Assembly (NCBI GenBank): GCA_044221725.1
Contig: JBGAON010000003.1
Coordinates: forward strand, 192,001-256,000
Direction of reading: 5' to 3'
DNA length: 64,000 bases
DNA from: Elusimicrobiota bacterium
Lineage (GTDB): Bacteria > Elusimicrobiota > Elusimicrobia > F11
Part shown: one piece after another, positions 5,461-64,000 of the stretch
How the letters are laid out: each line of letters opens with the position of its first letter
How positions within the stretch are numbered: the first letter of the stretch is position 1
Made by a program: the position numbers and the translations under genes
The notes under the pieces: model-generated
Database searches by the model: none
What the model was told of the DNA's origin: nothing
What the model saw: only the letters and a program-made list of their open reading frames with translations

Positions 5461-5521
5461 TTTACAAAAGATTTACATTCCATTAATCCGATCTTAATCG
5501 CGCATCCATAGAATTCGCGCT
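5461..5521 (+). promoter_or_regulatory. Pho-box-like 11-bp-periodic array plus -10 element; probable leaderless promoter of the 1963-aa gene
   Basis: TTTACA 5461, TTTACA 5472, TTAATC 5483, TTAATC 5494; TAGAAT at 5509-5514; ATG at 5522 after a 7-nt spacer; no Shine-Dalgarno. Confidence 0.7.
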
Positions 5522-8500
5522 ATGGAAACGCCCCGTTTCGTTCGCGTAGTTGCTGGTTCGCTTTCGATTGTTTATCTCGCCACGAATTGCTTGTTCGCCG
5601 GTCGCGTGGAAGGGAACATCTGGCAGGAAAGGCGACCGTCGTCGGCCCCGAATGTTTTCATCCAGCGTCCCCGTATTCCTGCGGTACACACGGATCTTGG
5701 CTTGCGACGTGCGAGCATGATGGCATTGGCCCGCTTCGGCACCATTCGCAACGTTCAAAAATCCACTCATCCTTCTCCAAAAAATCCCGTGGTGCTCCAT
5801 GTTCAAGACGTTCACATGAACAGCGAAGCACAAAGAAATATTTCCGGAGCTCTTCAACAGCTGATTGACAATGAAAAGGTACGGCTGCTGGCATTGGAAG
5901 GGGCTTTTCATTCAATCGATTTAACGCCGTTTCGTAAATTTCCCGATCGAACGAGTGTTTTCAACGTTGCGGATTACATGTTGCAAGAAGGAAAAATTTC
6001 CGGTGCCATTCATGCCGCGGTCTTCGCTGAAAAAACAGTCTCGACGATTGGTATCGACGATTTTGGCCATTACAATGCAAATGTGGAAGCCGTACAAAAA
6101 TCGTTCGCGGCATCGAAAGAATTAAAACCGGAGATCCTGCGCTACGTGAACGATCTCGAAAAGAAAAAACAACAGACATTTGATTCTTCGCTGCTTCGGT
6201 TCGATAACACCGTGCAACAATATCGTAACCAGTCGCTTTCGTTGGGAGATTACGCTTCGGCGCTTTCTCGGATCGTGGATGCATCGTCGAGCGTGAAAAC
6301 ATTTCTCAAAGCACGTCGTCTCGAGTCAATCATTGATTTCTCTGCGGTCGCGCGCGCGCGTGCCGAGGCGCGTGAGAAAAATATTTCCCCGATCCATTTC
6401 CCATCGTTGATGCTTTACGATGATTACTTGCGAGCGGCAAAGTCAATTGATTCGGATGCGTTGGCGAACGAGTTGGAACACATGGAAAGCGCGGCGTTTA
6501 AAAAGCTTTCGCGAACACCGGCGGAGAGAGAGTTGATTGCGCAATCGCGCCGACTTTATCTGCTTGAGAAGCTTGTGAATTTTTCTCTGACCAAAAATGA
6601 GTGGGACGAATACGAGAACGAGCATCGTTCCGCGTGCGCTATACCTCACGAAAGGATTCAGCCGTTTGAGGCGTTTTATATGGAAGCGGAATATCGTGAC
6701 GCCGCGATGGCGATGAACTTTTTAAATCAAATCAATGAGATAAATGATGCAGACCAAAGCACCTTTGTGTTGGTCACCGGCGGCTTCCATTCTTCCGGCA
6801 TCGACAAACGCCTCGGCGACGCAGGCTGTACCGTGGTGACATTTATTCCAAAGATCACGAAGATCGACACCGTAAACGGTTCCGCGTATCTCAGTGTGTT
6901 TGCGCAAGAAAAATTTTCGCTCGATAAGCTGTTCGAAGGAGAAAAAATTTTCCTTTCGCCTTCGCCGATGTCGAAAAGCGCATTCGGATTGTTCGCCGTG
7001 CTTGTGGCGAGCGTTGCGCTGCTCACCAACGCAGTCTCCAGCGGGATTGCCGCTTCGTGGCTTCAATCAACACTGGCAATGAACGATCTTTCAATTGCAA
7101 AAGCAGGGGCGAACGCGGTGAACATTGTCTTTGGACTTTATGGCGCGCACCTTGGCATCACGTTCTTGAGCGGAGCCGCAGGGGCGATTCGGCCAGAGCT
7201 TTCTATTGCCCGCCAGAAACCGGATTTCGGTCGCTGGTTCCCTTCTTCAATTCGGGAATCACTCGAGCACTTCATGCCGTGGTTCGTGCCGCAGCACATT
7301 GCGATTCGGCGGTGGCCGCTGTGGATTGGTTACGCAATGATTGTCACGTGTGGCGTTGCGTTTCCGGTTCTTTTTTCTGAGTTTGTCTCTGTCGTTCCCT
7401 CCGAAGTGTGGATGTGGACGGGCGGTGTTGTTGCGCACGAATTTTATAACCGGCTGGCAAAAGTTATGGGTTGGCCCATGTTGACCCGTGTGGTTCTTGC
7501 CCAAGATTTTTTAACGGCCGAACAGGAACAGAGCTTGGCTCGCGAAATGGATTCAATATTCGATTCGATGTTGCCGGTGCTGCTGGATAATGAAAAAGCC
7601 CAAGATTTGTTGCTTCGTCTTCTCAAGTCCGATTTGCACAGAAGAATAAATCTGAATCTTGTCATCCAGGCGGATGTGCAGGCGCACAAAAAGGGAAAAT
7701 TTTGGATTCGGCCTGGTTTGACTGCCAAAAACAACGTTCGAATTGCAGACCTCATTCAAGTCCTAACTCGCACTCCCAGTTCCGAGCTTTATGCGCAGAT
7801 CAAAGATTGGCATGAAAAAAACAACGATCTTTCTTTGAATTTGAGGAATTTGACGTTGAGATTTTTGCACGGATTTCGAGAGCTTTCTTATTCTGAGAAA
7901 CAACAACGACAGATTTCGAATTGGATAAGAACCTATGAAGATACAAGGAACATGCTGGTACGACCTTATGTGGGCATCGTCACCGGTCTTGCAAAAAAAT
8001 TTACAAGACAAGGACTGTCAATCGATGAATTGGAATCTGAGGGCTACAGTGGATTGCTTGCGGCGGCCGAACATTATCGCGTTGGGTTTGGACGTTTCAG
8101 CACTTTTGCGACTCCATCAGTGAGAAGAAGCATGCGCGTCGCTGTGTTGCGGAAGGCAAAAGAGAACGCGCCCGAGCGCACGCTGACGGAGTCGATCGCT
8201 GGCGAAGAAATTGATTACGATTCATCGAAATACGAGGAATTATTGAAGCAGGTGTATCAATTGCCGCGGCGAGATCAATTTGTGTTGTCTCAATATTACG
8301 GATTGAATGGCCTGGACCCGGAAAAGCTTGAACAAGTGGGGCGTCGCCTGGGTTTGTCGGTGGAACGAATTCGCCAAATAAGAAACCGCGCGCTGGATAG
8401 GCTTCGAGAGCGCCTGACGTCGCCGACAGGCGAACTTCGGGAGGAAGAAGAGGGTGCGCCTATCTCGAAAAAGCTGAACAGACAGAACGTTATTGATATG

Positions 8501-11413
8501 TTGACCAACGTTTCTCCATCCGTGTTAATGTCTCATGAGGCCGATGTTTTAAGAATGATTTTCGGTATCAATGGTCGTGTGCCGCTTACAATTCAAGAAA
8601 TCTCGGAAGCCACAAAATGGTCCGAATGGCAAATTGAAAGAATCCGCGATGCGGCGCTCGATAAATTGATGAAGGCCCGTGTTCATGAGCACGCATTCGG
8701 AAGGGGGATTCTTCCTTTTCTCGCGCGTGAGTCAAGATTTCTGCGCTTGAAGGGGCATACGCGTTCCGCCTCTTTAATAGAAAACGTTGTTTTTCCTTCC
8801 CTTGAAGAGCTTGTCTTTAGTTTTGGAGCGGTTTACGTGTTCGGCGCGTACGGACTCATTATCGCACGCGTGATTCATGTGGCGTTGCATTTGCTAGGGC
8901 CGCCATTATCGGATCGTGGCGCTCAAAATGTTTTTCGAAAGCTTTTTATTCCTGTTCTTATTTCTGTTGCGCCGTTTTCCTTCCTTGGTGTTCCGAGTCT
9001 TTCTTCTTCGGTGTTTTCGGTAAGTGCGGCTTTTGATGTTGCTGCGCAGTTTTTCGAATGGCACGTTGTCTTTAATTCGCTCGTCGATTTGACGGGCGCG
9101 ACCGTCGCCAAAGCCAATTTGCCAACGAACGACGACATCGTGGGGCCGTATCGCATCCTTCGCGAAATCCGGCCGCAAAGCGCCCGAGCCGTGGCGGTGT
9201 ACGAAGCCGTCCACGTTGAGACAAACGCCAAAGTCATTCTTAAAACGTATCTTGATTTTCCAACGAATTCTCAGGAGTTTTTAAATGCGCATTCCCGTGA
9301 GGTTCGCAACCTCTGGCTGCTCACGCAAAAAGGGATCAATTTCGTTCCCAAATTAATTGATCAAGGCGTCGATTATCACGGCGCGGTTCCGCGATATTGG
9401 TTTGCGATGGAATTGGTCGAAGGGAAAACGCTCGACAAATGGCTCGCCGCCAATGCGAGCTACCACGATCGCTTGCAGGTGTTTCGAAACTTGTTGGTGG
9501 TCGTTGACCGTTTTCACCGAGAGGGATATGTTCACCTGGATCTTACGGCCACCAACATCATGGTGCTGCCAGACAATCAAGTGATGCTTATCGACGTCGA
9601 ATTGATGCAGTCGCTTGAGGTATCCCTTCAACAATTTGTGCTCGGTGCGCCCGCTTATGCATCGCCGGAAACACGGGCGGGTTTTCGGGGAGTTTATACG
9701 CGATCGGCGGATGTTTTTTCTCTCGGTGTAATACTGTTTTTAATGAGCACGGGCATGTCAAAATTGGAACGCCATCCTGCGAACGACGGGGTTTTCTCTT
9801 CGTTGGTAACTCGATATCCAGATGCGGATATATATGAATGGGTTCGCGCCGAGATCGCCAAGCAATCCCCTTGGGCAGTGTACGGCGATGTGATCTCAAA
9901 GGCACTCCGAGCCAACCCGCATTCGCGGTTCACATCCGCTCGGAATTTTCTGAAGGCCATGGACGACGCAGCGGTGCACCACGCTTTGGATGTTTCGAAA
10001 GCGATGCAAGCCATTGACCGCGCTTTTTACCTTGAAGACACAAAAGTTGTCGACGTCACAACCGCTCCTAATGATCTGATGATTTACACCGTTGAGCCGG
10101 AATGGAAAACGGGTCTTGCTTTGTTAACCCAGGAACTATCGTCGCCGCATCCTCGATTCCAACTGGTCATGCGGAATTCGAGATTAATAGGAATTGTTCC
10201 CACCGAAACGCGGCGGGATTCGAGTTTTCGGTATTTGTCTTTGGCCGATTATCAGTACGATCCTCCGGATTATTCCATTGGGCTTTCGAATAAGTGGAAA
10301 GAAATTTTGAAACAAAGCAGCGAGGACGAAGCACGCCTCGAGGAATATTTGCGATCACGCGGGCGTACCGATCGCGAGATCCAAGGCGGTCGTCTCAATG
10401 GATTCGGTGATCATTGTGTTGAACCTGCCGTGCTTGTTGATCTGGGCACGTCGATCACGCTCACATCCATTCGGTCACCTCTCGAACACCCACAGCCGCT
10501 GTTGGCGAGTCGTCGACAAGCCGAAAACTTTGTGATTCAGGTTTTGCCCACCGTCTCTTCTCCGATCGGCAAACAGAATGGCGGATACGAAAAAGCGGCT
10601 GAGGATCGGAAATACTATTTCAATGTTACGAATGTCGCGGAGACATACGATAAGAAAAACGGGCCTGGTTCGTGGAAGGGAAAGAAAAGAATTCGAGTCG
10701 TTGGCTGCGGAACCGGCTGTGACGCGGTCGCCGTGTTGGTGGGTGCAATAAATTATCACGGACATTCGATTGCTGACTTAAGGGACTATATTCGTATCAA
10801 CGAAAGAGTGCCCGAATGGGCACCGATTATCGATGCCAGTGACATAAACCCGGTGGCGGTTGAAAACACGAAGCTCACATTTGACCAACTTGGGATTTCA
10901 GCGGTCGTCTACGCGCATGTGACGGACAACTTGCTGTCTTCGATTCCAACCACGGAGCTCGCCGACGTAATAATTTGGAACATGCCATCTTATCCAGCCG
11001 ATAAATTAGCGGATCAATTGGCCGATTATGCTGATGGCGGCGCCAACGGCAAGATTGCGCTCGACATTTTAACGGAAAGGCTATCGGCGAACTTGGCCGA
11101 TGGCGGCGTGGGAATTTTTGGGAACTACCAAACGCCGGTTATTTTAGACGGAACGCAACGCGATCTTGTTCGATACAAGTTGGTTAACAGCGCAGGGGCT
11201 CGTGAGCGAGGCATGACCGTTCAAGGGGGAGGATTGTATGGCAGCCGCGAGGTCTACGTAACGCATGTGCCGTTGACCCAATCACCGGTGACGCGAATGG
11301 ATGTTGGTCTCAAGTTTCGTTTGGAACATAATCAACAAAACAATGAGCTGCCGAAAATCCCGGTCCGTCACGAGGACTGGATCGAGCGTCGCGCCATTTT
11401 GGGCGGTGCTTAG
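5522..11413 (+). CDS. 1963-aa multidomain membrane protein: N-terminal conserved domain + sigma-70-like + Ser/Thr kinase-like + SAM methyltransferase-like domains
   Basis: Signal-like N-terminus; QDVH..LEGA..RD..MA..GGFH domain; sigma region 2 (DELESEGYSGLL..FSTFA) and two region-4 HTHs; kinase motifs VILK, HLDLTATN, YASPE, DVFSLG; MTase motifs VGCGTG, SDINPVAV, IIWNMPSY; several hydrophobic blocks. Confidence 0.85.
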   Translation: METPRFVRVVAGSLSIVYLATNCLFAGRVEGNIWQERRPSSAPNVFIQRPRIPAVHTDLGLRRASMMALARFGTIRNVQKSTHPSPKNPVVLHVQDVHMNSEAQRNISGALQQLIDNEKVRLLALEGAFHSIDLTPFRKFPDRTSVFNVADYMLQEGKISGAIHAAVFAEKTVSTIGIDDFGHYNANVEAVQKSFAASKELKPEILRYVNDLEKKKQQTFDSSLLRFDNTVQQYRNQSLSLGDYASALSRIVDASSSVKTFLKARRLESIIDFSAVARARAEAREKNISPIHFPSLMLYDDYLRAAKSIDSDALANELEHMESAAFKKLSRTPAERELIAQSRRLYLLEKLVNFSLTKNEWDEYENEHRSACAIPHERIQPFEAFYMEAEYRDAAMAMNFLNQINEINDADQSTFVLVTGGFHSSGIDKRLGDAGCTVVTFIPKITKIDTVNGSAYLSVFAQEKFSLDKLFEGEKIFLSPSPMSKSAFGLFAVLVASVALLTNAVSSGIAASWLQSTLAMNDLSIAKAGANAVNIVFGLYGAHLGITFLSGAAGAIRPELSIARQKPDFGRWFPSSIRESLEHFMPWFVPQHIAIRRWPLWIGYAMIVTCGVAFPVLFSEFVSVVPSEVWMWTGGVVAHEFYNRLAKVMGWPMLTRVVLAQDFLTAEQEQSLAREMDSIFDSMLPVLLDNEKAQDLLLRLLKSDLHRRINLNLVIQADVQAHKKGKFWIRPGLTAKNNVRIADLIQVLTRTPSSELYAQIKDWHEKNNDLSLNLRNLTLRFLHGFRELSYSEKQQRQISNWIRTYEDTRNMLVRPYVGIVTGLAKKFTRQGLSIDELESEGYSGLLAAAEHYRVGFGRFSTFATPSVRRSMRVAVLRKAKENAPERTLTESIAGEEIDYDSSKYEELLKQVYQLPRRDQFVLSQYYGLNGLDPEKLEQVGRRLGLSVERIRQIRNRALDRLRERLTSPTGELREEEEGAPISKKLNRQNVIDMLTNVSPSVLMSHEADVLRMIFGINGRVPLTIQEISEATKWSEWQIERIRDAALDKLMKARVHEHAFGRGILPFLARESRFLRLKGHTRSASLIENVVFPSLEELVFSFGAVYVFGAYGLIIARVIHVALHLLGPPLSDRGAQNVFRKLFIPVLISVAPFSFLGVPSLSSSVFSVSAAFDVAAQFFEWHVVFNSLVDLTGATVAKANLPTNDDIVGPYRILREIRPQSARAVAVYEAVHVETNAKVILKTYLDFPTNSQEFLNAHSREVRNLWLLTQKGINFVPKLIDQGVDYHGAVPRYWFAMELVEGKTLDKWLAANASYHDRLQVFRNLLVVVDRFHREGYVHLDLTATNIMVLPDNQVMLIDVELMQSLEVSLQQFVLGAPAYASPETRAGFRGVYTRSADVFSLGVILFLMSTGMSKLERHPANDGVFSSLVTRYPDADIYEWVRAEIAKQSPWAVYGDVISKALRANPHSRFTSARNFLKAMDDAAVHHALDVSKAMQAIDRAFYLEDTKVVDVTTAPNDLMIYTVEPEWKTGLALLTQELSSPHPRFQLVMRNSRLIGIVPTETRRDSSFRYLSLADYQYDPPDYSIGLSNKWKEILKQSSEDEARLEEYLRSRGRTDREIQGGRLNGFGDHCVEPAVLVDLGTSITLTSIRSPLEHPQPLLASRRQAENFVIQVLPTVSSPIGKQNGGYEKAAEDRKYYFNVTNVAETYDKKNGPGSWKGKKRIRVVGCGTGCDAVAVLVGAINYHGHSIADLRDYIRINERVPEWAPIIDASDINPVAVENTKLTFDQLGISAVVYAHVTDNLLSSIPTTELADVIIWNMPSYPADKLADQLADYADGGANGKIALDILTERLSANLADGGVGIFGNYQTPVILDGTQRDLVRYKLVNSAGARERGMTVQGGGLYGSREVYVTHVPLTQSPVTRMDVGLKFRLEHNQQNNELPKIPVRHEDWIERRAILGGA

Positions 11414-11417
11414 ATTC

Positions 11418-12443
11418 TTAATCTAATTTCTCGAACTCTTTTTTTAGCAATGCGTCAAACGGCAACAAAAAAAACGACGTAAGAATCAAACCGTAAATTT
11501 GTGACCGTTTTATTTTTACGGGCCCAGTGGTCTTAAGAATGTTCGGAGTCTCACGCAATTTTTTTAGTGTTTTCATTCCGATCATAAGCGGCCACCACAC
11601 GGCGGCGCGCAATCCGAGCGAAAATTTTGGAAGCTGCGATATATACGAAAGCCCACGCTCCAAGCGAAATATCGTTTGATCAATTAGATCCACGTAAACT
11701 TTTCGAAACTCGTCTTCTTTTTTGCCAGCGATGATATCGTCGATCGCAATCCCGTCGCGGTTGAGTAACTCGGTCGGTATGTAACATCGCCCCATCTTCA
11801 GGTCTTCAGGAAAGTCCCGTAATATATTGACCATCTGAAGGCCTGTCCCAAAGATGATTCCGTCCTGGAGCATGCGGTCCGGGTTTGGAATGTTCAATAC
11901 AGGCAAGTGCGACAAGCACACGCTGGTCCAAAAACGTCCGGGTTCGCCGCCAATCCAATGGATATACGCTTCGAGTTCTTTGTCGGTGGGCATGGCTTTC
12001 GCCGACTCTGCGTCGGAACCATCAAAAATTTTCAAATCCATTTCCATGCCAGTGATCACCGCAGTGACCACCGATTGGATCAACGCTTGATTGCTGCGCG
12101 TGAGACTATTGAACCAGGCCGTGCAGCGATTGAAATTTTTCAGCAGTCTTTGTTCGTTGACTTTTGGCGTTAGATTCAGGTTGTCGAGATCTCTCAAAAA
12201 ATCGGTGAGCCGGTCGCTCGGTATCGGAAACGTCGCGAACAAACTTCGAAACTGGCCAAGCAGTTTAAGTTTCTCTGAAGTTTGCGTGGAAGGAGTGTCG
12301 GCAATCGTGTCGGCGGCACGGCACAGCAGATACCCAAGTCCCATCACGGAACGAATTTTTTTCGGAAGGATCTTGAAACTCAAATAGAAAGATCGCGAGA
12401 CGTCTTTCAGAAGACTGTTTTGTATTTGTTCAGTGAAATTCAT
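11418..12443 (-). CDS. Squalene/phytoene synthase family protein (farnesyl-diphosphate farnesyltransferase-like)
   Basis: VSRSFYLS, YLLCRAADTIAD and GLQMVNILRDFPEDLKMGRCYIP motifs. Confidence 0.9.
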   Translation of the reverse strand: MNFTEQIQNSLLKDVSRSFYLSFKILPKKIRSVMGLGYLLCRAADTIADTPSTQTSEKLKLLGQFRSLFATFPIPSDRLTDFLRDLDNLNLTPKVNEQRLLKNFNRCTAWFNSLTRSNQALIQSVVTAVITGMEMDLKIFDGSDAESAKAMPTDKELEAYIHWIGGEPGRFWTSVCLSHLPVLNIPNPDRMLQDGIIFGTGLQMVNILRDFPEDLKMGRCYIPTELLNRDGIAIDDIIAGKKEDEFRKVYVDLIDQTIFRLERGLSYISQLPKFSLGLRAAVWWPLMIGMKTLKKLRETPNILKTTGPVKIKRSQIYGLILTSFFLLPFDALLKKEFEKLD

Positions 12444-12453
12444 GCAGCGCGCC

Positions 12454-13848
12454 TTAAGCGGCTGCCGATTCTACATCAGGAAGGAAATCAATGAGCGAAT
12501 CAATTTTATCCATGTGACCGAGCGTTTTTCGAATCGAGAGTGGGAAAGGGTCTGTGCTGTTGTTCCCGAGGGCCGCCAGATTGCGCGGATTCCATGTGCC
12601 TTGAGTTGTCTTAACAAGCACCATCGGCCGCGCGATGTGTGCGAGGTTCGGCATTATCACAACGCCACGCTCGCCGGTGTTCAATTGAACGATCGTGCCC
12701 GGCGCATACAACCCATGGAACGGTAGCAGCAGTTTGACGAGAAGCTGAGGGAACTGCGTACGAGCGCGGTGGAGCGTTGTGCGGAGTATTCGATGCATCG
12801 GTACCGGCCGATGATAATGATGATCGGACACGGTTGCCCAGCTAACAAAGTCGCAAAGTCCAACGATTTGAGAAAAGATGTGCGGCTTTAGGGATCCCGG
12901 TAGCGCCGGATATCCCTGGCCGTCCGCGCCCACGTGATGTTCCAGCGCCACTCGCACAACGCTCATCGGTAATCCCTGTACACCAGCAAGAAAAGAAGCG
13001 CCATCGCGCGCGTGCAACCGAACAAATTCAATGTCGCCTTCTTTCAATTTGTGGCCGCTTGAAAATTCGGATGGCAACAGAAAACGGCCCGTATCGTGCA
13101 GCAACGCCGACAACGCCAGAATTTTCGTCGACGTCAAATCACACCCCAGTTGATGGGCAAGATAAACGCACTGAATTGTCGTATGCACCGCGTGTTGGAC
13201 CGAAAGGTTCGTCCGTGGAAAGGTTGCGAGCATGAGAGAAAAATCCATCGGACGCTGATGAACCGCGTCGACAAGTCGATCGAGCGGCAGCGCCAAATCG
13301 GCCAATGACACGGCTTGTTCCTCAATAATCTTTGTCAGTGTTTTCTCGGCCAGGACGAGCCACTCGTTGTAAATGGTCACCGAACGGTCAAAATGCGCGC
13401 GAACTGTTTTCGATTTGTCGTCGTGTTTCCTTTCTTCTTCAAGCGTGGCCTTAATATGTTCGCTTTGAAAGCCTCGGGACGGTCCGGATTTCTCCATGAG
13501 ATGTTGGCTCAGGTCCACCACCTCTTTCGTGGTAACGTTCGGCAAGAACGCCACTTTCGCAATCTTTCGTTCTTCAAAGCCGCGGAGCAAATCGTACAGC
13601 GAAAGACTTTCTTCAATGAAAAGCATGTCATCAATCACAAACAAACCGTCCACATGGTGCAGCAGAAAATCAAAACGTATGGATAGGACGTCTTGCAAAG
13701 CTTGCAAAAATTTCTGGGCTGCTTCCGTGGTGCTCGGATGGCTCGGGGAATAAAGCCTTGCGTTCTTAAACGTTGCATACCACGCACGGAGTGCCGCGCT
13801 GTATTTTTCGCGGTCGCGCTGGCGTGTGTTGGGCATCATTTCACTCAT
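12454..13848 (-). CDS. HD-GYP domain protein
   Basis: LLHDTG, HARDGA, EHH..DGQGYP; C-terminal YAPGTIVQLNTGERGVV..N....RP subdomain. Confidence 0.85.
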   Translation of the reverse strand: MSEMMPNTRQRDREKYSAALRAWYATFKNARLYSPSHPSTTEAAQKFLQALQDVLSIRFDFLLHHVDGLFVIDDMLFIEESLSLYDLLRGFEERKIAKVAFLPNVTTKEVVDLSQHLMEKSGPSRGFQSEHIKATLEEERKHDDKSKTVRAHFDRSVTIYNEWLVLAEKTLTKIIEEQAVSLADLALPLDRLVDAVHQRPMDFSLMLATFPRTNLSVQHAVHTTIQCVYLAHQLGCDLTSTKILALSALLHDTGRFLLPSEFSSGHKLKEGDIEFVRLHARDGASFLAGVQGLPMSVVRVALEHHVGADGQGYPALPGSLKPHIFSQIVGLCDFVSWATVSDHHYHRPVPMHRILRTTLHRARTQFPQLLVKLLLPFHGLYAPGTIVQLNTGERGVVIMPNLAHIARPMVLVKTTQGTWNPRNLAALGNNSTDPFPLSIRKTLGHMDKIDSLIDFLPDVESAAA

Positions 13849-15455: not shown

Positions 15456-15499
15456 ACATAATTGTAAGGGCACTCCGGTCGCGATGCAAGTTAAAGATC

Positions 15500-15528
15500 T
15501 TGATATCCCTGGGTTGCCCTGTTAGAAT
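15500..15528 (+). promoter_or_regulatory. Sigma-70 promoter of the small-protein/ftsH/adaptor/two-component operon
   Basis: -35 TTGATA (15500-15505), 17-nt spacer, TG extension, -10 TAGAAT (15523-15528). Confidence 0.7.
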
Positions 15529-15575
15529 CCGACGAACAAAACGTGTCACAATTTTTCGTCGAACGGGAGGACGTA

Positions 15576-53266: not shown

Positions 53267-53267
53267 T

Positions 53268-54695: not shown

Positions 54696-56689
54696 GAATT
54701 CGATTCGCAATCGTCGGTTTCTTTTTGGCCGCGCCGGTGTTCGCTCAAGATGTGGCCGTTCAGTCGTCGACGCCGACGACTTCCGCTGCTGTTGTGTCGT
54801 CCTCTCCTACGGTTTCCGCGCCTCGTTCCACGGATTTGCAGGAGTCCACGCCCACCGCGATTGCCACACCGCCCGTGTTAACCGTTTTACCTTCGTCCAC
54901 ACAAAACGCGGCCGGACCGGCCATCCTTGAAAAGGTTTCAATCGACGACGCCGGTAACCGGCTTCTCGTGTTAATTCAGACAAACAAACCGGTGCAGTGT
55001 TTTGTGTTTGAGAAAAAAGATCCGCCGGCGCTCTTTGTGCAATTTGTGGACACGGCCGTGTACGCGTCGGGCGACCCGATTCAAGTGGTGGGAACCGATC
55101 CGCTTTCCGAAATTCGCTACGGTTACGCGAGTTTTCACGATGCGACGTCGGCCAACCGCAATCGCAACGACAAATTTCCGCTTGAGTACTTGGAATTGAA
55201 ATTGAACCGTTCGGTTTTCTATCACGTGCAACAAGAGGGCTGGGTGGTGGTTGTCGGGCTCGATCGCACGACGTCGAAAGTGGATGTGCCGGATTTGGAT
55301 TTCCGTTTTGAAAAAGCGAAATACGAAGGCGCGTCGAATTTGCCGCCGAACCCGCGCATCGATGATTTTGTGACGACGTCGCAAGCGAACAGTCAGCTGC
55401 TGACCGTGTCGCGCGGGGAAGTTGAATTGGCGAAGTTCCGTGTCTCGGAAGCGCGCCGCGCTCTTTTTCCGGCGCTCACCGCGCGCGCGAGCGACACGCA
55501 TGGAAAAGAAGCCAATCCGTTTCCGAGCCAAATTTTCGAAGGATTCGAAGCCACCACCTACAAGCGCGAAGAATACGGAGTTCAGGCGACGCAGCCGTTG
55601 TACGAATCCGGTCGCGTGTACGGCGCGTACAAGCAAGCGAAGCTAAACCGGCTTATGGCAACCGAGAATCTGCGAAAGCAAGCGCAGGATCTCACCTACG
55701 AAATGAAAAAAGCGTACAACACGCTCTTGAAAAATCAGGCGATACTGCGCGTTCGCCGCGAACTCGTGGCGCAAGGCGAGCAATTGAAAGACATGGTGCG
55801 CAAAAAACATCAGCTTGATCTCACGTCAAAATCCGAAGTGTTGAACGTGACCGCGCAAGCCGATCAAGCGGTGTACCAATTGACTTCGGACGAGCAAGAT
55901 GTGGCGCTCGCGCGACTCGTGGTCATTTCGCTTTTGAATCAAGCGGAGCCCGTTCCCGATCCGGTGCCTGGCGCGCTGTCGTTCGCGCGGCTCAGCTTCA
56001 ATATCGAGTCCATCATCAATTGGGCGCAAGAGCACCGGCCCGATGTGCGTATCGCGACGCTGAACGCCGAGCTCGCCAAGTACAACATGAAAGCCGCCAA
56101 AGGTGACAACCGATTGAAAGTGGATGCGTCGGGATTTTTAGGGAAAGCCGGTGCCGCGTTTGAAGGTGACGATTTCCAGCTCGAAACCGCTTGGAACGTG
56201 GGACTGAAAATTTCTCAGCCGTTCGCTGGCAACACATTGCGCGGTTCGTTTACGAAGGAGCACACGGCGCCGGACCTTGGCCAAACGTTTGTCACCGATT
56301 CGCAGCAGCGCACGGTGGAGCTCGGAATCTTGGACGCCATTCCTCAAGTGTCCAACGCGCAACAGTCGCAACTTCAGTACGCGCGCGCGAAAGCGGAGTT
56401 GGTCGAAGCCAGCCGCAAAGCCGAATTTGAAGTGCGCCAAACTTATTACAATCTCGAAAAATCAGCGCGGCAGTTGGATGCGGTGCGCCAAGATTTGAAA
56501 TACCGTCAAAAGGATCTCGAAATTACACGGGAGAAAGTGAAACTCGGTCTGTCCGAACTGTCGCAGCTCATGGCGGCAGAAGTTGCGTACGCGCAAGCAC
56601 AAATCACCGAACAGGACGCGCTGTCGGCCTATAATATTGCGCTCGCCGATATGGACCGTGTCGCTGGCGCTGAAGTCGTGCGAGAATGA
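54692..56689 (+). CDS. TolC-family outer-membrane channel with N-terminal Ser/Thr/Pro linker and AMIN-like domain
   Basis: Signal peptide; STP-rich stretch; ILEKVSI..VLIQT..DPPALFVQF (AMIN-like); OEP repeats (ARRALFPAL, QPLYESG, HRPDVRIA, YNIALADMDRVAG). Confidence 0.85.
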   Translation: MRIRFAIVGFFLAAPVFAQDVAVQSSTPTTSAAVVSSSPTVSAPRSTDLQESTPTAIATPPVLTVLPSSTQNAAGPAILEKVSIDDAGNRLLVLIQTNKPVQCFVFEKKDPPALFVQFVDTAVYASGDPIQVVGTDPLSEIRYGYASFHDATSANRNRNDKFPLEYLELKLNRSVFYHVQQEGWVVVVGLDRTTSKVDVPDLDFRFEKAKYEGASNLPPNPRIDDFVTTSQANSQLLTVSRGEVELAKFRVSEARRALFPALTARASDTHGKEANPFPSQIFEGFEATTYKREEYGVQATQPLYESGRVYGAYKQAKLNRLMATENLRKQAQDLTYEMKKAYNTLLKNQAILRVRRELVAQGEQLKDMVRKKHQLDLTSKSEVLNVTAQADQAVYQLTSDEQDVALARLVVISLLNQAEPVPDPVPGALSFARLSFNIESIINWAQEHRPDVRIATLNAELAKYNMKAAKGDNRLKVDASGFLGKAGAAFEGDDFQLETAWNVGLKISQPFAGNTLRGSFTKEHTAPDLGQTFVTDSQQRTVELGILDAIPQVSNAQQSQLQYARAKAELVEASRKAEFEVRQTYYNLEKSARQLDAVRQDLKYRQKDLEITREKVKLGLSELSQLMAAEVAYAQAQITEQDALSAYNIALADMDRVAGAEVVRE

Positions 56690-59600
56690 AACTCGGAACA
56701 TTGTTCGTTAAGCGCCCAGTGATGACTTCCATGGTCTTCCTGGGCATTGTCATTTTTGGACTCATCTCCTGGATGAATCTCCCTCAAGAATTGTTCCCGA
56801 ATATTTCCGTGCCGCAACTCGTGATCATCACAAAATATCCGAACGCGGCGCCCGAAGAAATCGAAAACCTGATCACGAAGCCAATCGAAGAAGGTGTCGG
56901 TACGGTGCCGAATTTGCGGCGTGTGCGGTCGATCTCGAAAGAAGGTATCTCGGCCGTGAAAATGGAATTCGCTTGGGGCACCGACATGGGCTTTGCCCAT
57001 TTGGCCACGCGCGAAAAATTGGATCGCATGAAAGACCGGCTTCCCCAAGAAGCCGAGGAACCGATCATTAAGCGCGTGAACCCGTTCTCTCATCCGGTCA
57101 TGATCATTAGCGTCACGGGAAAACTTGATTTGCCGGTCATGACGAAGTTATCCGAAGACATCGTGAAAAAGAAGCTGGAGAAAACCGATGGCGTTGCCTC
57201 GGTTATGATTTCCGGCGGACAGAAACGCGAAATTCTCGTTGAAGTGGACCGCGGCCGTTTGGACGCGAGTCACGTATCGTTGCCAATGGTTGTCGAATCC
57301 ATTAAGAACGCGAACTACGATTATCCGGCTGGCACCACGCAGGGGAAGGTCGTCGAGTATCTCGTTCGCACGCACGGCCGATACACGAAGATCGAAGACA
57401 TCGGAAAAACCATCGTGCAAGTCGAAAACCCCGAGATCGATCCGGTGTACAAATGGAAAAGGCGCGAAGACAAAGACCACAGCAGCGCGCCGATGGACCA
57501 ACGGCTAATTCCGCTCGCCAACATTGCCGAGGTAAAGGATTCGCTGCAAGACAAAACCAGTTATTCGCGTTACAATGGAAACGAAAACATTTCGATCTCG
57601 ATTCAAAAGCAAGCGGAAGCGAACACCGTTGTGGTTTCGGACGCCGTGCGCGAAGCGCTTGCCGAGTTAAAAAATTCGCTGCCGAGCGATTTCAATATGC
57701 AAGTGATTTACGACGAATCGACGTACATCACCGACGCGCTCGCGAACATGCGAAACAACATTATCGCCGGCGGTATTTTGGCGTTCATTGTGTTGTTTGT
57801 TTTTCTCGGCGATTTGCGCGACGCGTTGTTCGCGGGTCTCGCTATCCCGATTGCGATCCTTGTCACGCTCATCACGATGTATCTGACGGGCTTCTCTATC
57901 AACATGCTCACGTTGGCCGGGTTGGCGCTTTCGGTCGGAAGCATGTCCGACTGTTCGATCTGTATGACCGATAACATTACGCGACATCACCGCGAGTTTA
58001 AAAAGCCGCTGGTGGAAGCTGCCGTCGACGGCTCGAACGAAATGGTGGGCGCGATGCTGTCATCCACGCTCACGAATATCGCCGTGTTCCTGCCGCTGTT
58101 GTTTGTGAGTGGCATCGCTCAACAGTTGTTCCAAGGGCTTTTTATGGTCACGATTTTCACGAACTTTGCGTCGTTGTTCGTGTCGATCACGTTCATTCCA
58201 CGCATGGCCGCTTATCCGTGGGATTTGTCGCCTATCATGCGCCGCTTCCCGTGGCTTGGAAAAATTATTTTGACCGATGACAAACAGAAAAAAATCAACT
58301 CGCAATACGAACGGCTGCTCGGATACTCGCTTGATCATCCGAAAGCGGTTTTTAAAATTGTGCTTATGGGCCTCGCACTTTCGGTGTTGATGCTGGTTTG
58401 GACGCCGCGCGTGTTCATGCCGAAAATGGACCAAGGTCAATTTATGTTGCAGCTCAACATGCCGATCGGCACCAGGCTCGAAGTAACAAACGGCGTCGCG
58501 CGGAAAATTGAATCGATTCTCGGAAACTTTACGAACGTGAACATGTCGGTCACGGTCGGTTCCGCACAAGAAGACGAAGAGATCGATGCGCTGCAATCGC
58601 ACCAGGCGCAGGTGGCCGTGACCGTTGATCTCAACAAAGGTTTGACCACGAACGACGTGATCGATAAATTTAAAGCGCTCGCGAAACGCGAAAATTTGGA
58701 AGGCGGGCAGCTTACGTATTTGTTGCAAGACAGCCCGCTGCGCTCGGCGCTCGCCGGGGGTGCGCCGGTCGAAGTGGAAGTAAAGGGAAACGATCTGGCG
58801 CGACTTAAAATGCTGTCGGACGAGCTTGTTAAGAAATTGGATGACGATCCTTATTTGTTTGGTGTGCAGACGTCGTTCGCTTTGCCATCGCGGGAAACGC
58901 AGGTGCTCGTCGATAAAGACCGCGCGTCGGCGTACCAGTTGTCCGTGGCGGACATCGCCAAAACGGCGCTCATCGCGATCAAGGGAATGGTGGCCACCAA
59001 ATTTAAGGATGGCGGAGATGACATCGATATCCGCGTGCGCTTACGGAAAGTGGACCGCGAGAACAACGAAAGCATTCGCCAGCTTGCTTTGCGCTCGCCG
59101 CAACGCAACGTCATGGTTCCGTTGAACGACGTGGCCCAAATTCTGCCCGGCACCGGCGCCAGCGAAATCCGCCATTTGGATCAACAGCGCGCGTTCGTTG
59201 TGACGGCCGAAGTGACGGGAGCCAGCTCAGCAAAAGCCATCGAACACGTTCAAAAGATTATCAGCGGGTATCGTGGTTACAAAGATTATGTGATCGAGCT
59301 CGGCGGCGAGAGCCGTCGCATCGCCGAATCTTTCTCGAGTCTTAAATACACCTTCGTATTGGCTATATTTCTCATCTATATGATCATGGCCGCGCAGTTC
59401 GAATCGGTGGCTCAACCGATTATCATCATGACGACGGTTCCGTTATCCGTCGTGGGCGTGGCGGTAACGCTCTTCATCACGAACATGCCGCTGTCGTCGG
59501 TGGCCGCGCTCGGTGTCGTTATCTTGGCCGGTATCGTGGTGAACAACGGTATTGTGCTCATCGATTACATCAACGGCCTCATCGCCGATGGCATGGACGT

Positions 59601-59862
59601 GCGCGAGGCGATTATTCGCGGGAGCTTGGGTCGCATTCGCCCCATTTTGATGACGATGTTCACCGCGGTTCTCGGTTCGGCGCCGCTCGCGCTTGGGCTC
59701 GGTCAAGGCGATGAACTTGCACAGCCATTGGCCGTTGTAACGTTCGGAGGGTTGTTCATATCGACATTTTTAACGCTGTTCATCATTCCATTGCTCTACT
59801 ATTTGCTCGAACAATGGCAAGCCAAACGCGCGCAGATGCAGGGAGAAGGGGTGGCCGCGTGA
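56686..59862 (+). CDS. RND (AcrB-family) permease 1
   Basis: FVKRPV..ELFPNI..PEEIENLITKPIEE; INMLTLAGLAL; AAQFES; RIRPILMT; PLAVVTFGGL. Confidence 0.94.
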   Translation: MKLGTLFVKRPVMTSMVFLGIVIFGLISWMNLPQELFPNISVPQLVIITKYPNAAPEEIENLITKPIEEGVGTVPNLRRVRSISKEGISAVKMEFAWGTDMGFAHLATREKLDRMKDRLPQEAEEPIIKRVNPFSHPVMIISVTGKLDLPVMTKLSEDIVKKKLEKTDGVASVMISGGQKREILVEVDRGRLDASHVSLPMVVESIKNANYDYPAGTTQGKVVEYLVRTHGRYTKIEDIGKTIVQVENPEIDPVYKWKRREDKDHSSAPMDQRLIPLANIAEVKDSLQDKTSYSRYNGNENISISIQKQAEANTVVVSDAVREALAELKNSLPSDFNMQVIYDESTYITDALANMRNNIIAGGILAFIVLFVFLGDLRDALFAGLAIPIAILVTLITMYLTGFSINMLTLAGLALSVGSMSDCSICMTDNITRHHREFKKPLVEAAVDGSNEMVGAMLSSTLTNIAVFLPLLFVSGIAQQLFQGLFMVTIFTNFASLFVSITFIPRMAAYPWDLSPIMRRFPWLGKIILTDDKQKKINSQYERLLGYSLDHPKAVFKIVLMGLALSVLMLVWTPRVFMPKMDQGQFMLQLNMPIGTRLEVTNGVARKIESILGNFTNVNMSVTVGSAQEDEEIDALQSHQAQVAVTVDLNKGLTTNDVIDKFKALAKRENLEGGQLTYLLQDSPLRSALAGGAPVEVEVKGNDLARLKMLSDELVKKLDDDPYLFGVQTSFALPSRETQVLVDKDRASAYQLSVADIAKTALIAIKGMVATKFKDGGDDIDIRVRLRKVDRENNESIRQLALRSPQRNVMVPLNDVAQILPGTGASEIRHLDQQRAFVVTAEVTGASSAKAIEHVQKIISGYRGYKDYVIELGGESRRIAESFSSLKYTFVLAIFLIYMIMAAQFESVAQPIIIMTTVPLSVVGVAVTLFITNMPLSSVAALGVVILAGIVVNNGIVLIDYINGLIADGMDVREAIIRGSLGRIRPILMTMFTAVLGSAPLALGLGQGDELAQPLAVVTFGGLFISTFLTLFIIPLLYYLLEQWQAKRAQMQGEGVAA

Positions 59863-60728
59863 AATACCTCGTTTTGCTGGGCCTACTAGCCTTTTCGCCC
59901 GGCTGCAAACCGACCTACAAACAGGAAACGCTCCGCGAAAGCGTAAAGATGCTCGCTCAAAAAGAATACGGTTTGGATGTGGAAGTGAAACAAATCGGAA
60001 AAACGCTCGGCCTCCGCTTCAAAGTTAAGAATTTGCTAAGCGAACTCTATTCCGGTGACGACGACATTTATAAGAAGATGAACGGACTTTTTACGGTGCT
60101 CGTTCGTGTCGTGTTGTCGTCCGACGTCGCTCCCGACTTTATCGTGCTCGATGTGACCGACGAAGACAATCCGCAGTTCCATTTGGTGTTCACGCGCTAC
60201 GAGGAAGACTTGCGCAAGGCCATGGCCGAAGCCTTATCGTACACGCAATCCCAGGACCGTTTGCTCGAGGAATTTGTGATCGGCGGCCGCCATGTTCCGT
60301 TCGATCCGCAAGAAATGGATTTGGTGCGGCTTATGATGATGGCCATGGATTCCGGCCAAGGCAAAATGACCGACACGTCTTCGTTTGAGCTGGAAGAAGT
60401 TCGATTTAATGATTTCGTCGCGCGCGTGGTGGAAAACACGATGCGCCGAACGTTGCGCGAACAAAAAGAAGTGAACAAGCAAGCGGTCGTGCGCGAAGTG
60501 AAAGCGTCGTTTGACGAAATGCCGGGCCGCCGCGGTCAGTTTAAAGTTCTGCTTGATATGGTGTCCAAACCGAGTACGCCGCTTTCGCCGCTGTTTCTTG
60601 AGGAAACAGTTTTTCCAATGGTCACAAAAGAAGTTACGGCGCTTTTTAAAAGTTACCGCTTTAGCGATTTTTCAGGCATTGCGGTGATCGAGAAGAATTC
60701 GGGAAAAATATTGACGACAGGTACTTAG
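59859..60728 (+). CDS. Probable lipoprotein of unknown function (289 aa)
   Basis: GTGA overlap with the RND1 stop; MKYLVLLGLLAFSPG-C lipobox-like N-terminus. Confidence 0.72.
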   Translation: MKYLVLLGLLAFSPGCKPTYKQETLRESVKMLAQKEYGLDVEVKQIGKTLGLRFKVKNLLSELYSGDDDIYKKMNGLFTVLVRVVLSSDVAPDFIVLDVTDEDNPQFHLVFTRYEEDLRKAMAEALSYTQSQDRLLEEFVIGGRHVPFDPQEMDLVRLMMMAMDSGQGKMTDTSSFELEEVRFNDFVARVVENTMRRTLREQKEVNKQAVVREVKASFDEMPGRRGQFKVLLDMVSKPSTPLSPLFLEETVFPMVTKEVTALFKSYRFSDFSGIAVIEKNSGKILTTGT

Positions 60729-60750: not shown

Positions 60751-63700
60751 ATGTTCTTAACAACTCAATCCATCAACCGCCCCATCGGAACGCTCATGGT
60801 CGTTCTCGGCGTTTGTCTGGGGGGCGTCGTCGGCATGTTTTATTTGCCGGTCGACATGATGCCGAACGCCGAGTCGTCGCAAGTGACCATTTACGTGGGT
60901 GTGCGTGGCGGCATGCCCTCCGAAGACATTGAGCATCTGGTGACCGAACCCATTGAAGAAGCGGTGGCCACGATGTCGGGGCTCAAAGAAATTCTTTCCA
61001 CGTCGAAAAAAGACCGCAGCACGATCACGCTCATGTTCGAAGATTCGGACAACGTGAAGCGCGCGCAACTCGAAGTATCCGAACGGCTTGCGCGCATCAA
61101 GGGCAAGTTGCCGCGCGAAATCGAAAAACCCATCGTCGCGCGCTACAATGAAAATGACCATCCAATTGTAATTCTCAGCGCCACGTCGTCCGTGAAAACG
61201 CCCGAAGTGATTCGCTCGCTCATTGAAAAAGATTTGAAACCCTTGCTCGCGCGAGTGCCCGGTGTTGGCAACGTCGAGATCACCGGTGGCCGTCAGCGCA
61301 AAATTCTTGTGGAGTTCGAAAAATCAAAACTGGAAATGCACACGCTGTCGATTCTTGATGTGATCCGTGAGCTCGGCCAATCGAACGTGTCATTGTCCTC
61401 CGGAAAATTTGATTCGGGGCGTGACGCGTGGTCCGTGCAGTTGATTGGTGATTTCAAATCGCTGGACGAAATGCGCGAGCTTGGCGTTTCGATTACGAAA
61501 CAAGGTTCTCGGATTCGGTTAAAAGACATCGCGACGGTGCGCGACTACTACCTGGAACCCGAATCGTACGCGCGCATCAACAACCAGCCGTCTGTGTCCA
61601 TTTACGTTCAAAAAGAGAGCGGCGCGAACACCATCAAGTCGGCGCAAGAAGTTTTGCGCACGGTGGGCGAATACCAAAAGACGCTTCCGAAAGATATCGG
61701 CATCGGCGTCTCGATTGATCAGTCGGTGGCGATCAAGCAAGCCATTTCCGATGTGCGCGGAGCGTTGACCGAAGGAGCGCTCCTCACGGCGTTTATTTTG
61801 TGGCTGTTCTTGCGCCGCATGAAACAGGTGGGCGTGATCATTCTTTCGATTCCGGTCGCTGTGCTCGGCACCTTCTTCGTGATGTTGTTGCACGGCGTGT
61901 TCATGGAAAAAATGGGCAACCCGCCGATGTTCACGATCAACGTGATGTCGCTTTTGGGTGTGGCGCTCGGTATTGGGCGCATGGTGGACGACTCGATCGT
62001 CGTGTTCGAAAATATTTTGCACCGGTATCAACAACACGTGCGCGAAGGTACCGCGTTTAACAAAGTCGAAGTGGCCATCGATGCGACGCGCGAGATGGCG
62101 CTCGCGGTGGCGTCGTCCACGCTAATCCTGGTTGTGATCTTTGTGCCGATTGTGCTTTTTAGTGAAGACATTCGGCGGCAGTTTGCCGACGTGGCGTTTA
62201 CCGTGATCGTTTCGTTGTTGTGCTCGCTCGTGATGGCAATCACGATCATTCCGCTGCTGGCTGCGCAACTTAAGGTCACATCAGGCAAGTCCGATACGTC
62301 CGACATGTTCGAGTGGGAACGGAAGTTCGGGGAATGGCGAGCCACCAAATGGGCCGCATTTCGAGCGAATATGGAATCGCCACCGCCCGACGGGAAAGGA
62401 ATGGCGCTGCGCATCGCCAAGATCGCCCGAACAATCATGAATTCGAGTCTTGTTCGCAACACGCGCCGTCTTTTTCATAGAGGGAAAGGCGATTTTTCGT
62501 GGTCACGATTGATTCGTCACTCCGAGGCGTGGGCTGTACGAAACAGAAGGTACGTGATGCTCGGCGTGGTCGCATCGCTCGTGATCTCTGTCGCGATCTA
62601 CATGAAGTTGCCCAAGGAATTTTTGGGCAGCGGCGGCAAAGACGAATTCATTATCTTCGTCGAACTGCCTTCCGGTTCAAAACTCGATGTGTCGGACAAG
62701 GTGGTCACCGCGGTCGAAAACGAAATCAACGCGTTGCCCGAGGTGAAGCAGGTCGTGAAAACCGTGTCGTCGCGCGTCGAAGGGTGGTCGTCCAAAATCT
62801 ACGTGACACTGAACAAGGGATTTGAGCGCACGCGGACCGCTGAAGACATTATCGGGGCGCTTCGCCCCAAATTGAAAACCATCGGCGCGCAATACGAGGC
62901 GTTCATTTATTTCTCGGAAGCGTCGAGCGCCAAAGAATTGACCGTCGATTTGTTTGGCAAAGACTATTTGCAGCTGCGCGATTTGGCGGTTGAAACCGCT
63001 AAGCGCATGCAGCAAGTGCAGGGCCTGCGCGACGTAAAATTGCGTTACAAACCGGGGCAACCCGAAATCCGTATGGACGTCGATCACGAACGCGCGGCGC
63101 TCTTCGGGCTCAACTCCAAAGACATTGCGGACACGCTGCACGCCGAAATCCGCGGCTTGCGAGCGACGTACTTCAATGCGGGCAACGAACAAGTGGAAAC
63201 GGTGGGCCGGCTTTCCGAGGAAGACCGGCGCACCGTCGACAATTTAAGCAATCTCACGCTTCTGTCGAACACGCGGCGTCGGAATGTGGTGCCGGTCATG
63301 CAAGTGGTGGAAGTCGGTCACGGGTTTACTCCGAGCGAAGTGTGGCGCCGGAACAAGGAGCGCGTGATTCAAGTGTCGGGCAATCGCGACAAATTGGCGC
63401 TCTCAACGGCTGTCGAAAAAGTCCAACGCGCGCTCAAAGACATGCACGTGCCCGTCGGTTACCATTACGAATTCGGTGGCGACTATCAGAAACTCGTGAA
63501 AAGCGAAAAAGAATTTCTGTACGCGTTCATTGTGATGATGACGCTCGTGTACATGGTGCTCGCGTGTTTCTTTGAGTCCTATTCACAGCCGTTCCTGATG
63601 TTGCTCACGTTGCCGCTCGCCACCGCCGGATCCATGCCGGCACTTTTGCTGACAAAAACGTCGGTCAACATGGGCGTGTACATCGGACTCCTGATGTTGG

Positions 63701-64000
63701 GGGGAACCGTGACGTCGAACGGGGTCATTCTTATCGATCGACTTAATTCCGTGCGGAAAACGCGCAGTCTTTACCGCGCCGTTCTTAAATCCGGAATCGA
63801 ACGGTCGCGCCCGATTTTTATGACGTCTCTCTCGACGATCGCGGCAATGCTGCCGCTCACATTTGAAAAAGGCGAATCCGCCGATTTGTGGGCGCCGCTG
63901 GCTCTAACCGTCGTCACCGGCATCGCGCTCTCGTCGGTGCTAACGCTGCTCGTGATCCCCGCGGCGTATGTCATGTTGGAAGACATCAAGAAGTACTTCG
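60751..64000 (+). CDS. RND (AcrB-family) permease 2 (3' end just beyond the window)
   Basis: Frame from ATG 60751: MFLTTQSINRPIGTLM..VTEPIEEAV; MVDDSIVVFEN at 61981; FESYSQPF; RSRPIFMT; last TM LLVIPAAY at the window end. Absent from the ORF track because no stop codon is in the window. Confidence 0.92.
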   Translation, partial: MFLTTQSINRPIGTLMVVLGVCLGGVVGMFYLPVDMMPNAESSQVTIYVGVRGGMPSEDIEHLVTEPIEEAVATMSGLKEILSTSKKDRSTITLMFEDSDNVKRAQLEVSERLARIKGKLPREIEKPIVARYNENDHPIVILSATSSVKTPEVIRSLIEKDLKPLLARVPGVGNVEITGGRQRKILVEFEKSKLEMHTLSILDVIRELGQSNVSLSSGKFDSGRDAWSVQLIGDFKSLDEMRELGVSITKQGSRIRLKDIATVRDYYLEPESYARINNQPSVSIYVQKESGANTIKSAQEVLRTVGEYQKTLPKDIGIGVSIDQSVAIKQAISDVRGALTEGALLTAFILWLFLRRMKQVGVIILSIPVAVLGTFFVMLLHGVFMEKMGNPPMFTINVMSLLGVALGIGRMVDDSIVVFENILHRYQQHVREGTAFNKVEVAIDATREMALAVASSTLILVVIFVPIVLFSEDIRRQFADVAFTVIVSLLCSLVMAITIIPLLAAQLKVTSGKSDTSDMFEWERKFGEWRATKWAAFRANMESPPPDGKGMALRIAKIARTIMNSSLVRNTRRLFHRGKGDFSWSRLIRHSEAWAVRNRRYVMLGVVASLVISVAIYMKLPKEFLGSGGKDEFIIFVELPSGSKLDVSDKVVTAVENEINALPEVKQVVKTVSSRVEGWSSKIYVTLNKGFERTRTAEDIIGALRPKLKTIGAQYEAFIYFSEASSAKELTVDLFGKDYLQLRDLAVETAKRMQQVQGLRDVKLRYKPGQPEIRMDVDHERAALFGLNSKDIADTLHAEIRGLRATYFNAGNEQVETVGRLSEEDRRTVDNLSNLTLLSNTRRRNVVPVMQVVEVGHGFTPSEVWRRNKERVIQVSGNRDKLALSTAVEKVQRALKDMHVPVGYHYEFGGDYQKLVKSEKEFLYAFIVMMTLVYMVLACFFESYSQPFLMLLTLPLATAGSMPALLLTKTSVNMGVYIGLLMLGGTVTSNGVILIDRLNSVRKTRSLYRAVLKSGIERSRPIFMTSLSTIAAMLPLTFEKGESADLWAPLALTVVTGIALSSVLTLLVIPAAYVMLEDIKKYF

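Follow-up and report, generated by a model that had tools for sequence, protein, structure and literature searches.

The window described here is a 64,000-nucleotide stretch of an Elusimicrobiota genome (contig C5:192001–256000; genome 2.82 Mb, 94%-complete) that carries an envelope module made up of a TolC–adaptor pump with two RND permeases, a short FtsH paralogue and a lipoprotein. The module is conserved in two Elusimicrobiota classes, where it occurs with, lies close to and disappears with a family of giant mosaic proteins defined by a QDxH/GGFH head (QDxH proteins). A functional tie of the pump to these giants is well supported by genomics. Our favoured explanation, offered tentatively, is that the module is dedicated to QDxH-headed and related tube-type giants, that the window has it in rearranged form, and that the pump exports pieces of these giants. 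Genomes, families, genera, contigs and loci are coded G, f, g, C and L, respectively, G000 being the genome analysed; the phylum sample comprised 251 genomes, and 40 relatives were surveyed for close orthologues. The second class (the "other class" below) is probably Endomicrobiia, with genus g59 as its small-genome symbionts. No literature describing this module was found in a search whose reach did not extend to preprint supplements and most subscription papers, Elusimicrobia genome papers included.

The pump and its co-inheritance with the giants

Profile matches confirmed the gene inventory of the preliminary description of this window (FtsH, adaptor, four signalling genes, a giant with a C-terminal domain (CTD), a CTD-only protein, PorV-TPR, TPR, TolC, RNDs and lipoprotein). 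The RND periplasmic adaptor (17600–18814, +; TIGR01730, 200 bits, cut-off 94.9) is distant from the TolC-family channel (54692–56689, +; OEP match), RND1 (56686–59862, +; full-length ACR_tran) and RND2 (60751–64000, +; 1095 aa, running 38 bases beyond the window). The two permeases score 729 and 667 bits against ACR_tran (cut-off 28). The channel had been labelled AMIN-TolC; its family holds, but the AMIN part is weak, the N-terminal extension being AMIN-like below threshold (Pfam E 0.081). An exported TPR protein (53223–54695, +) adjoins TolC in f1, f4, f10 and f15. At the start of its open reading frame (ORF) a palindrome-like repeat lies in frame (about 53290–53370), and the true start is probably downstream.

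That the adaptor belongs with the distant TolC/RND pair, as proposed earlier, is borne out by trees and by gene order. A tree built from the full-length RNDs that were fetched places RND1 and RND2 in clades of their own (support 1.0 each), separate from single-RND operons, and the window adaptor clusters with in-operon adaptors (support 0.99). Compact operons occur in relatives: G043 has the order TolC-adaptor-RND1-FtsH-lipoprotein-orf112-RND2 on a single strand, and TolC-adaptor-RND-RND operons are found in the other class (G047, G077, G079, G097, G101, G104, G144, G156, G213). By these operons and the two trees, the adaptor is cognate to the RND pair, and its separation from TolC in the window results from rearrangement. 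The whole window order is kept in G002, G004 and G008, with adaptor–TolC gaps of 61, 19 and 18 kb, respectively. Close adaptor and TolC orthologues were present in 10/11 surveyed genomes of f1, 4/4 of f4 and 3/3 of f10, and close RND2 orthologues in 10, 4 and 2 genomes of these families. TolC, adaptor, RND1 and RND2 are one co-inherited pump. Another adaptor serving the RND pair was considered and rejected, the remaining PF16576 genes sitting in operons of their own. As separate observations, the f4 adaptor is fused behind a response-regulator receiver domain (L049:11403–13100 in G031; G024:C3), and G002 has two extra pump operons, L219 and L222 (C11, C5), one lying after a CTD/PorV pair and encoding an RND2 of 1587 aa, the other preceding a tube-type giant.

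Across the 251 genomes, QDxH matches were found in 73, the lipoprotein in 85 and RND1 in 77 (E ≤ 1e-150, three candidates scored per genome). The raw table gave 63 genomes with both QDxH genes and pump, 10 with QDxH genes only, 14 with the pump only and 164 with neither. Ten of the 14 pump-only genomes proved to have single-RND operons outside both clades, and G051 was moved in when a better profile detected its QDxH genes; the corrected table is 64/10/3/174. The pump is thus present in 64 of 74 QDxH carriers versus 3 of 177 others, counts that ignore kinship and in which clade membership by tree covers only fetched RNDs. The lipoprotein accompanies QDxH genes in 69 of 73 carriers. Among the ten carriers with no pump match, four (G044, G213, G195, G153) have split or broken module genes and a fifth (G185) a contig-end fragment.

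Joint decay was seen within g59. Of its 21 genomes, six have both head and pump intact, three an intact head with the pump broken or not found, one both broken, two a relic of one, and nine neither; broken relics of one or both occur in G153, G195, G149 and G138. No intact pump was found in the 12 genomes that lack an intact QDxH head (Fisher p 0.0015, uncorrected).

Gene order points the same way. QDxH or tube-type giants directly adjoin module genes in G024, G025, G077, G079, G173, G181, G192 and G002:C5, QDxH genes specifically in G079, G181, G173, G077 and G024. Giants also follow RND2 in f1 and f10, and the paralogous pump operons of G025 and G002:C5 end with a tube-type giant. Past the window's end, RND2 is followed by a small opposite-strand ORF and then an 8369-aa giant with the top-scoring QDxH-class promoter. 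This giant (L001:1550–20000) has two stacked promoter forms, an Ala-ending tail and no NCBIfam match in its first 2765 aa.

An ordinary multidrug pump scattered by giant-gene insertion, its associations inherited by chance, is the least probable explanation and barely credible to us. Giant genes are indeed common (seven ORFs of >7900 aa in this genome), QDxH genes occupy varying slots and kin are not independent; the co-decay within g59 nevertheless speaks against it, the linkage survives several gene orders across two classes, and generic single-RND pumps of the same genomes have no such links to giants.

The mosaic proteins, FtsH and the lipoprotein

The window's own QDxH protein has 1963 aa (5522–11413, +) and is one of 26 QDxH/GGFH paralogues in a genome that also has 6 RND genes, 22 same-CTD genes, 27 PorV-like genes and one SprA-like gene. 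Members of the family have a common signal peptide and head, followed by transmembrane (TM) modules between cytoplasm-type domains. In the window protein the signal peptide and a head of predicted EreA/ChaN/Tiki-like fold (aa ~60–478) precede TM modules, sigma70 regions 2 and 4, a kinase-like domain with motifs altered from the canonical ones and a weak methyltransferase-like end. Pfam gave matches in 10 of 16 other paralogues, and paralogue domains include DHQ synthase, adenylate kinase, hexokinase, PP2C, beta-CASP, WD40, phosphorylase and glycogen synthase. The best 80 loci of the family are all titled Elusimicrobia or Elusimicrobiota, Ca. Obscuribacterium magneticum among them. The mosaic gene is not a set part of the locus: the slot is empty in three of four mapped family relatives and holds another paralogue in the fourth.

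The predicted head fold matches ChaN (Z 9.5, root mean square deviation (rmsd) 5.9, 196 aligned), EreC (Z 8.3) and HopBA1 (Z 8.1). All top structural rows fall in the EreA/ChaN/Tiki superfamily, yet with Z 8.1–9.5, rmsd 4–6 and Foldseek E of at least 0.015, and sequence comparison of the head with solved structures gave nothing under E 0.037. Invariant residues are D96, H98, E126, R392 and H423. In predicted fold and in its His/Glu/Arg/His positions the head may be of the EreA/ChaN/Tiki-TraB superfamily; from the solved members it differs in having no sequence match and a large helical insert.

The giants may cleave themselves and carry an FtsH-type tail signal. One paralogue has Rce1-like (CAAX-protease) TM modules (Pfam E 0.001 and 0.0016, below cut-off), HxxxN motifs number 16 in 48,194 residues versus 26 in 778,307, and the last residue is Ala in 21 of 26 QDxH proteins, against 19 of 155 long proteins of other kinds. 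Iterative searches with the mosaic TM modules returned only self-matches. When QDxH proteins and pump-adjacent non-QDxH giants were compared for signal-peptide likeness, the giants of six of eight relatives ranked in the top 41 of 2007, that downstream of RND2 in G000 falling outside the top 60; evidence for a signal peptide shared between the two groups is weak.

The short FtsH paralogue (15942–17594, +) has intact Walker A/B motifs, FVG pore loop and HEAGH site, so that both the AAA+ motifs and the M41 zinc site are present. It has no periplasmic domain, its TM segments lie ~10 aa apart, and it falls below the canonical FtsH equivalog cut-off (454/600 bits); a canonical paralogue is on C3. 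By the established topology of FtsH, it breaks down its substrates at the cytoplasmic face and is unable to push cargo through TolC. Since the protease site is kept and faces the cytoplasm, this FtsH is unlikely to be an export motor. Beside it lies orf112 (15576–15881, +), a small two-TM protein conserved next to FtsH/lipoprotein in f1, f4 and f18.

The orphan lipoprotein (59859–60728, +) has a near-invariant Cys16 and a predicted model (pLDDT 88.7) with two alpha/beta domains. Its gene directly follows FtsH in f4, f5, f10 and the other class and lies between the RND genes in f1. In 15 of the 18 genomes mapped, no more than 20 kb lie between FtsH and a pump gene; in G020, G035 and G077 FtsH is unlinked. 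FtsH and the lipoprotein travel with the pump. In families without a pump (L079–L084, L091, L092) the short FtsH sits among receiver/kinase genes and genes that read as pilus-like. The lipoprotein resembles the ring-building-motif lipoproteins PrgK and EscJ to the extent that a PrgK domain matches its monomer model (Z 8.6, rmsd 3.4, 85 aligned), a score tied with those of unrelated KH/OsmC-like folds. Outside Elusimicrobiota, scanning loci with one distant homologue turned up just one, weak locus, and the labels in a cluster look-up were Elusimicrobia and one Bacillota only. Complex prediction of the mosaic head with the lipoprotein scored 0.00, and the controls were not folded.

Promoters and the SprA/PorV/CTD route

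The preliminary description gave the mosaic gene, the giant gene and the PorV operon one promoter architecture, of which the elements were recovered but not a common arrangement. All three promoters have TTAA and TTAC repeats of 11-bp period, and in each the final TTAA lies 15 nt upstream of a TANNNT box. The mosaic promoter (5460–5521, +) has the order TTAC,TTAC,TTAA,TTAA and a TAGAAT -10 box 7 nt before the ATG, and its transcript is probably leaderless. The order is reversed in the giant gene promoter (23647–23702, +; TTAA x3 + TTAC x2) and the PorV-TolC-RND operon promoter (51223–51286, +; TTAA x4 + TTAC x2), the TTAC boxes lying over the -10 box. Shared activation with opposite use of the second (TTAC) box is possible. 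The FtsH-adaptor operon has instead a plain sigma70-type promoter (15500–15528, +; TTGATA-17-TAGAAT), likewise in G002 and G007.

The TTAC,TTAC,TTAA,TTAA pattern stands before 58 of 76 QDxH loci of other genomes versus 34 of 1999 genes in this genome. A matrix built from those 58 loci matched 31 sites in G000. They take in 22 of the 26 QDxH genes, together with the giant downstream of RND2, the giant with the CTD and the operon of PorV and pump (42.2 bits for the mosaic gene, 20.0 for the giant, 17.6 for the PorV operon); the FtsH-adaptor operon gave no match. G002, G004, G007 and G008 retain the reordered form; upstream of the corresponding operons in G020, G035, G024 and G233, and of other-class genes, it was not seen. 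Within the window's family, then, QDxH genes and pump operon have promoter boxes in common. Four signalling genes (18853–23491, +) encode a HAMP histidine kinase, an OmpR-type regulator, a receiver-kinase and an NtrC-type regulator, the OmpR-type regulator being the candidate binder of the boxes. Over 5001–25000, short contigs at depth 2–6 were obtained throughout, the divergent intergenic region included, from three RNA runs and a fourth run of uncertain type, so that DNA carry-over is possible. Elsewhere in the genome, full QDxH-class promoters lie right behind short QDxH genes and face non-QDxH genes (G000:C3:793565 and C2:130412), possibly relics of gene shuffling, and some nine genes at G000:C5:570000–605000, many with export-like N-termini, have TTAC repeats alone upstream and may form a second regulon of the same box.

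Between the two halves of the module lie an 8766-aa FG-GAP/FN3 surface protein with a type-A-like CTD (23703–50003, +; TIGR04183, 30.1 bits, cut-off 23) and a 108-aa protein consisting of a signal peptide and CTD only (50008–50334, +; 32.3 bits against the same model and cut-off). The pump operon opens with a PorV/PorQ-family barrel fused to TPR (51287–53266, +), one of the 27 PorV-like genes, which scores 171 bits against NF033709 (cut-off 90) and does not reach the PorV equivalog (93/250). No sprA gene is present in the window, as had been stated; a single SprA-like gene of 1799 aa does, however, lie elsewhere in the genome (L072, G000:C4:344418–349817; E 1.6e-31, but 108 of 200 cut-off bits). 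A search of the genome for other type IX secretion system (T9SS) core genes gave no GldM or GldN match and GldK/GldL matches below cut-off only, with no control genome passing the cut-offs either; a GldK match on C4, below cut-off and in unrelated context, was rejected as a ring gene.

The SprA-like gene occurs as a single copy in 39/41 and 5/5 genomes (44/46 in total), families without pump, lipoprotein or QDxH giants included, and 19 of 22 CTD genes have their own PorV-like neighbour. Because SprA-like genes occur in pump-less families and CTD genes have PorV-like neighbours of their own, the PorV-TPR, CTD giant and CTD-only proteins belong to a separate, phylum-wide SprA/PorV/CTD route, which joins the cluster in some families only. 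The preliminary description had instead proposed one machine that also displays the adhesin. In that form, RND/adaptor/TolC with FtsH would stand in for the missing PorLM motor, driving the export of the CTD adhesin by PorV/SprA and that of the mosaic cargo as well. This is very unlikely on the counts just given, even though the Gld searches that could be taken in its favour came out as described, weak controls and all, PorV-TPR belongs to the pump operon of three families (f1, f10, f15) and to the cluster of G024, and the boxes are common to the f1 operons. In G031 some 200 kb separate PorV-TPR from TolC, and neither PorV nor a CTD giant adjoins most modules of the other class. The neighbourhood survey across Elusimicrobiota thus linked pump, FtsH, lipoprotein and QDxH genes, but not, beyond some families, the PorV/CTD arm.

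This separate route resembles the Bacteroidota T9SS in its type-A-like CTDs, PorV-family barrels and SprA-like gene. According to the accessible text of PMC10994853, PorV binds the CTD inside SprA and the GldLM motor extracts it. The Elusimicrobiota set differs in that its SprA-like protein reaches only 108/200 bits, no motor or ring genes were found in the genome, and the 27 PorV-like paralogues are mostly paired with cargo. A 2024 paper states, in its accessible part, that T9SS genes are absent outside the Fibrobacterota–Chlorobiota–Bacteroidota (FCB) phyla (PMC11285876); a phylum-wide SprA-like/PorV/CTD set without recognisable motor conflicts with that restriction.

Other neighbouring genes touch the module less. 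A Fic/Doc gene with a small upstream ORF, presumably the antitoxin of a toxin-antitoxin pair, lies between the CTD-only and PorV genes (50324–51066, −); it is absent in G004 and G008, and three QDxH genes take its position in G002. A Rieske/cytochrome b/cytochrome c operon with FixC/FixX-like genes (176–5456) and squalene-synthase-like, HD and HEAT genes (11418–15473) flank the mosaic gene and are outside the module.

Cargo of the pump

Giant pieces are the favoured cargo over a small molecule. On the favoured explanation, the giants would enter the inner membrane through the signal peptide, with the Tiki-fold head coming to lie in the periplasm and TM modules separating the enzyme domains. 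The chain would be cut by those TM modules that resemble CAAX proteases and perhaps by the head as well, and the proton-driven RND1/RND2-adaptor-TolC pump would export the released pieces over the outer membrane. FtsH, as a cytoplasm-facing protease, with the lipoprotein as its periplasmic partner, might turn over or trim the membrane-bound remainder. PorV-TPR, the CTD giant and the CTD-only protein would use the SprA/PorV route, having in common with the module their neighbourhood and, in the window's family, a regulator.

Several observations weigh against dedication of the pump to the giants. Genomes G015, G032 and G038 of f5 have 15–18 QDxH matches each, with FtsH and lipoprotein, but no pump orthologue was found in them, although the G032 assembly consists of one contig. 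The pump is present without a QDxH match in G101 and G158; G089, G195 and G215 of g59 have an intact head and no intact pump. The FtsH clade is present in 34/41 class genomes, many without pump or QDxH genes, and FtsH and lipoprotein are retained in G042, G057 and G171 despite loss of pump and giants. None of the other-class QDxH and TolC genes inspected has the promoter boxes upstream, and the window mosaic's own TM modules have no Pfam match. In the accessible text of PMC8277102, the periplasmic protein cargo of tripartite pumps is limited to small peptides, carried through MacAB and not RND. Both window permeases, lastly, resemble ordinary HAE1-type permeases.

The pump may quite possibly export a small molecule or lipid (something the giants' enzymes make, a signal, or a toxin from the host) as part of the same programme of host or prey contact without ever handling the giants, FtsH and lipoprotein serving as quality control of large membrane proteins. 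The sequences suit this alternative. Of the proton-relay residues, equivalents of AcrB D407 and R971 are retained in both RNDs as in the single RNDs of the phylum; the D408 position is C in RND1, and the K940 position is N or S, the latter as in several of those single RNDs. The nearest solved structure to RND1 is MdtB (E 4e-95). In G077 and G144 the pump has canonical operon order and a plain sigma70-type promoter, and the f5, G101 and G158 genomes fit equally well. Against it, module genes repeatedly adjoin giants in distant families and after duplication, and lipoprotein and FtsH genes are interleaved between RND genes (window, G043); we know of no drug pump with such interleaving. The earlier view that this is not an ordinary drug pump is supported by the pump's tracking of the mosaic family.

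Among described pumps, the heteromeric HAE1 systems MdtABC-TolC and MuxABC-OpmB likewise have two RND permeases, one adaptor, one TolC-type channel and an adjoining two-component system. The window RNDs are far under the MdtB and MdtC family cut-offs (384/1584 and 370/1774 bits), and the module differs from both systems in its interleaved FtsH, lipoprotein and TPR genes, its following of giant proteins and the adaptor-receiver fusion of f4. Precedents for cargo of the favoured kind are partial: in the accessible text of PMC8277102, MacAB-TolC takes Sec-exported periplasmic peptides and Dispatched, of the RND family, releases processed lipidated Hedgehog. Unlike the pump here, MacB is an ABC transporter with cargo up to ~10 kDa, and Dispatched is eukaryotic and has no adaptor or TolC.

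The giants have counterparts in Omnitrophota, where Archaeovorins and hollow beta-tube giants likewise combine a signal peptide, many TM helices and metabolic enzyme domains and are reported beside type II/Tad systems (accessible text of bioRxiv 2023.11.21.568195). RND and TolC have no mention in the main text of that preprint or of bioRxiv 2026.06.07.730766. Look-alike clusters of the QDxH head and the lipoprotein, taken as leads from the ESM Atlas, were commonest in Omnitrophota and Elusimicrobiota.

A further-reaching version of the favoured explanation, which we consider doubtful, is that this is a new protein secretion system. Dozens of giants, recognised by their common signal peptide and the Ala at the end of their tail, would cleave themselves, and an RND heterotrimer-adaptor-TolC complex with dedicated FtsH and lipoprotein would export the processed enzyme domains (among them sigma factor, kinases, sugar enzymes and WD40 repeats) or deliver them into a cell of the host or prey. 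The phylum would run this system beside a SprA/PorV route without recognisable motor. If the pump does move protein pieces, an RND pump would be in use for protein export. Gene order, co-inheritance and co-decay now tie a short, named gene set to a single family of giant proteins, which makes the handling of these giants testable by knock-out, proteomics and structure.

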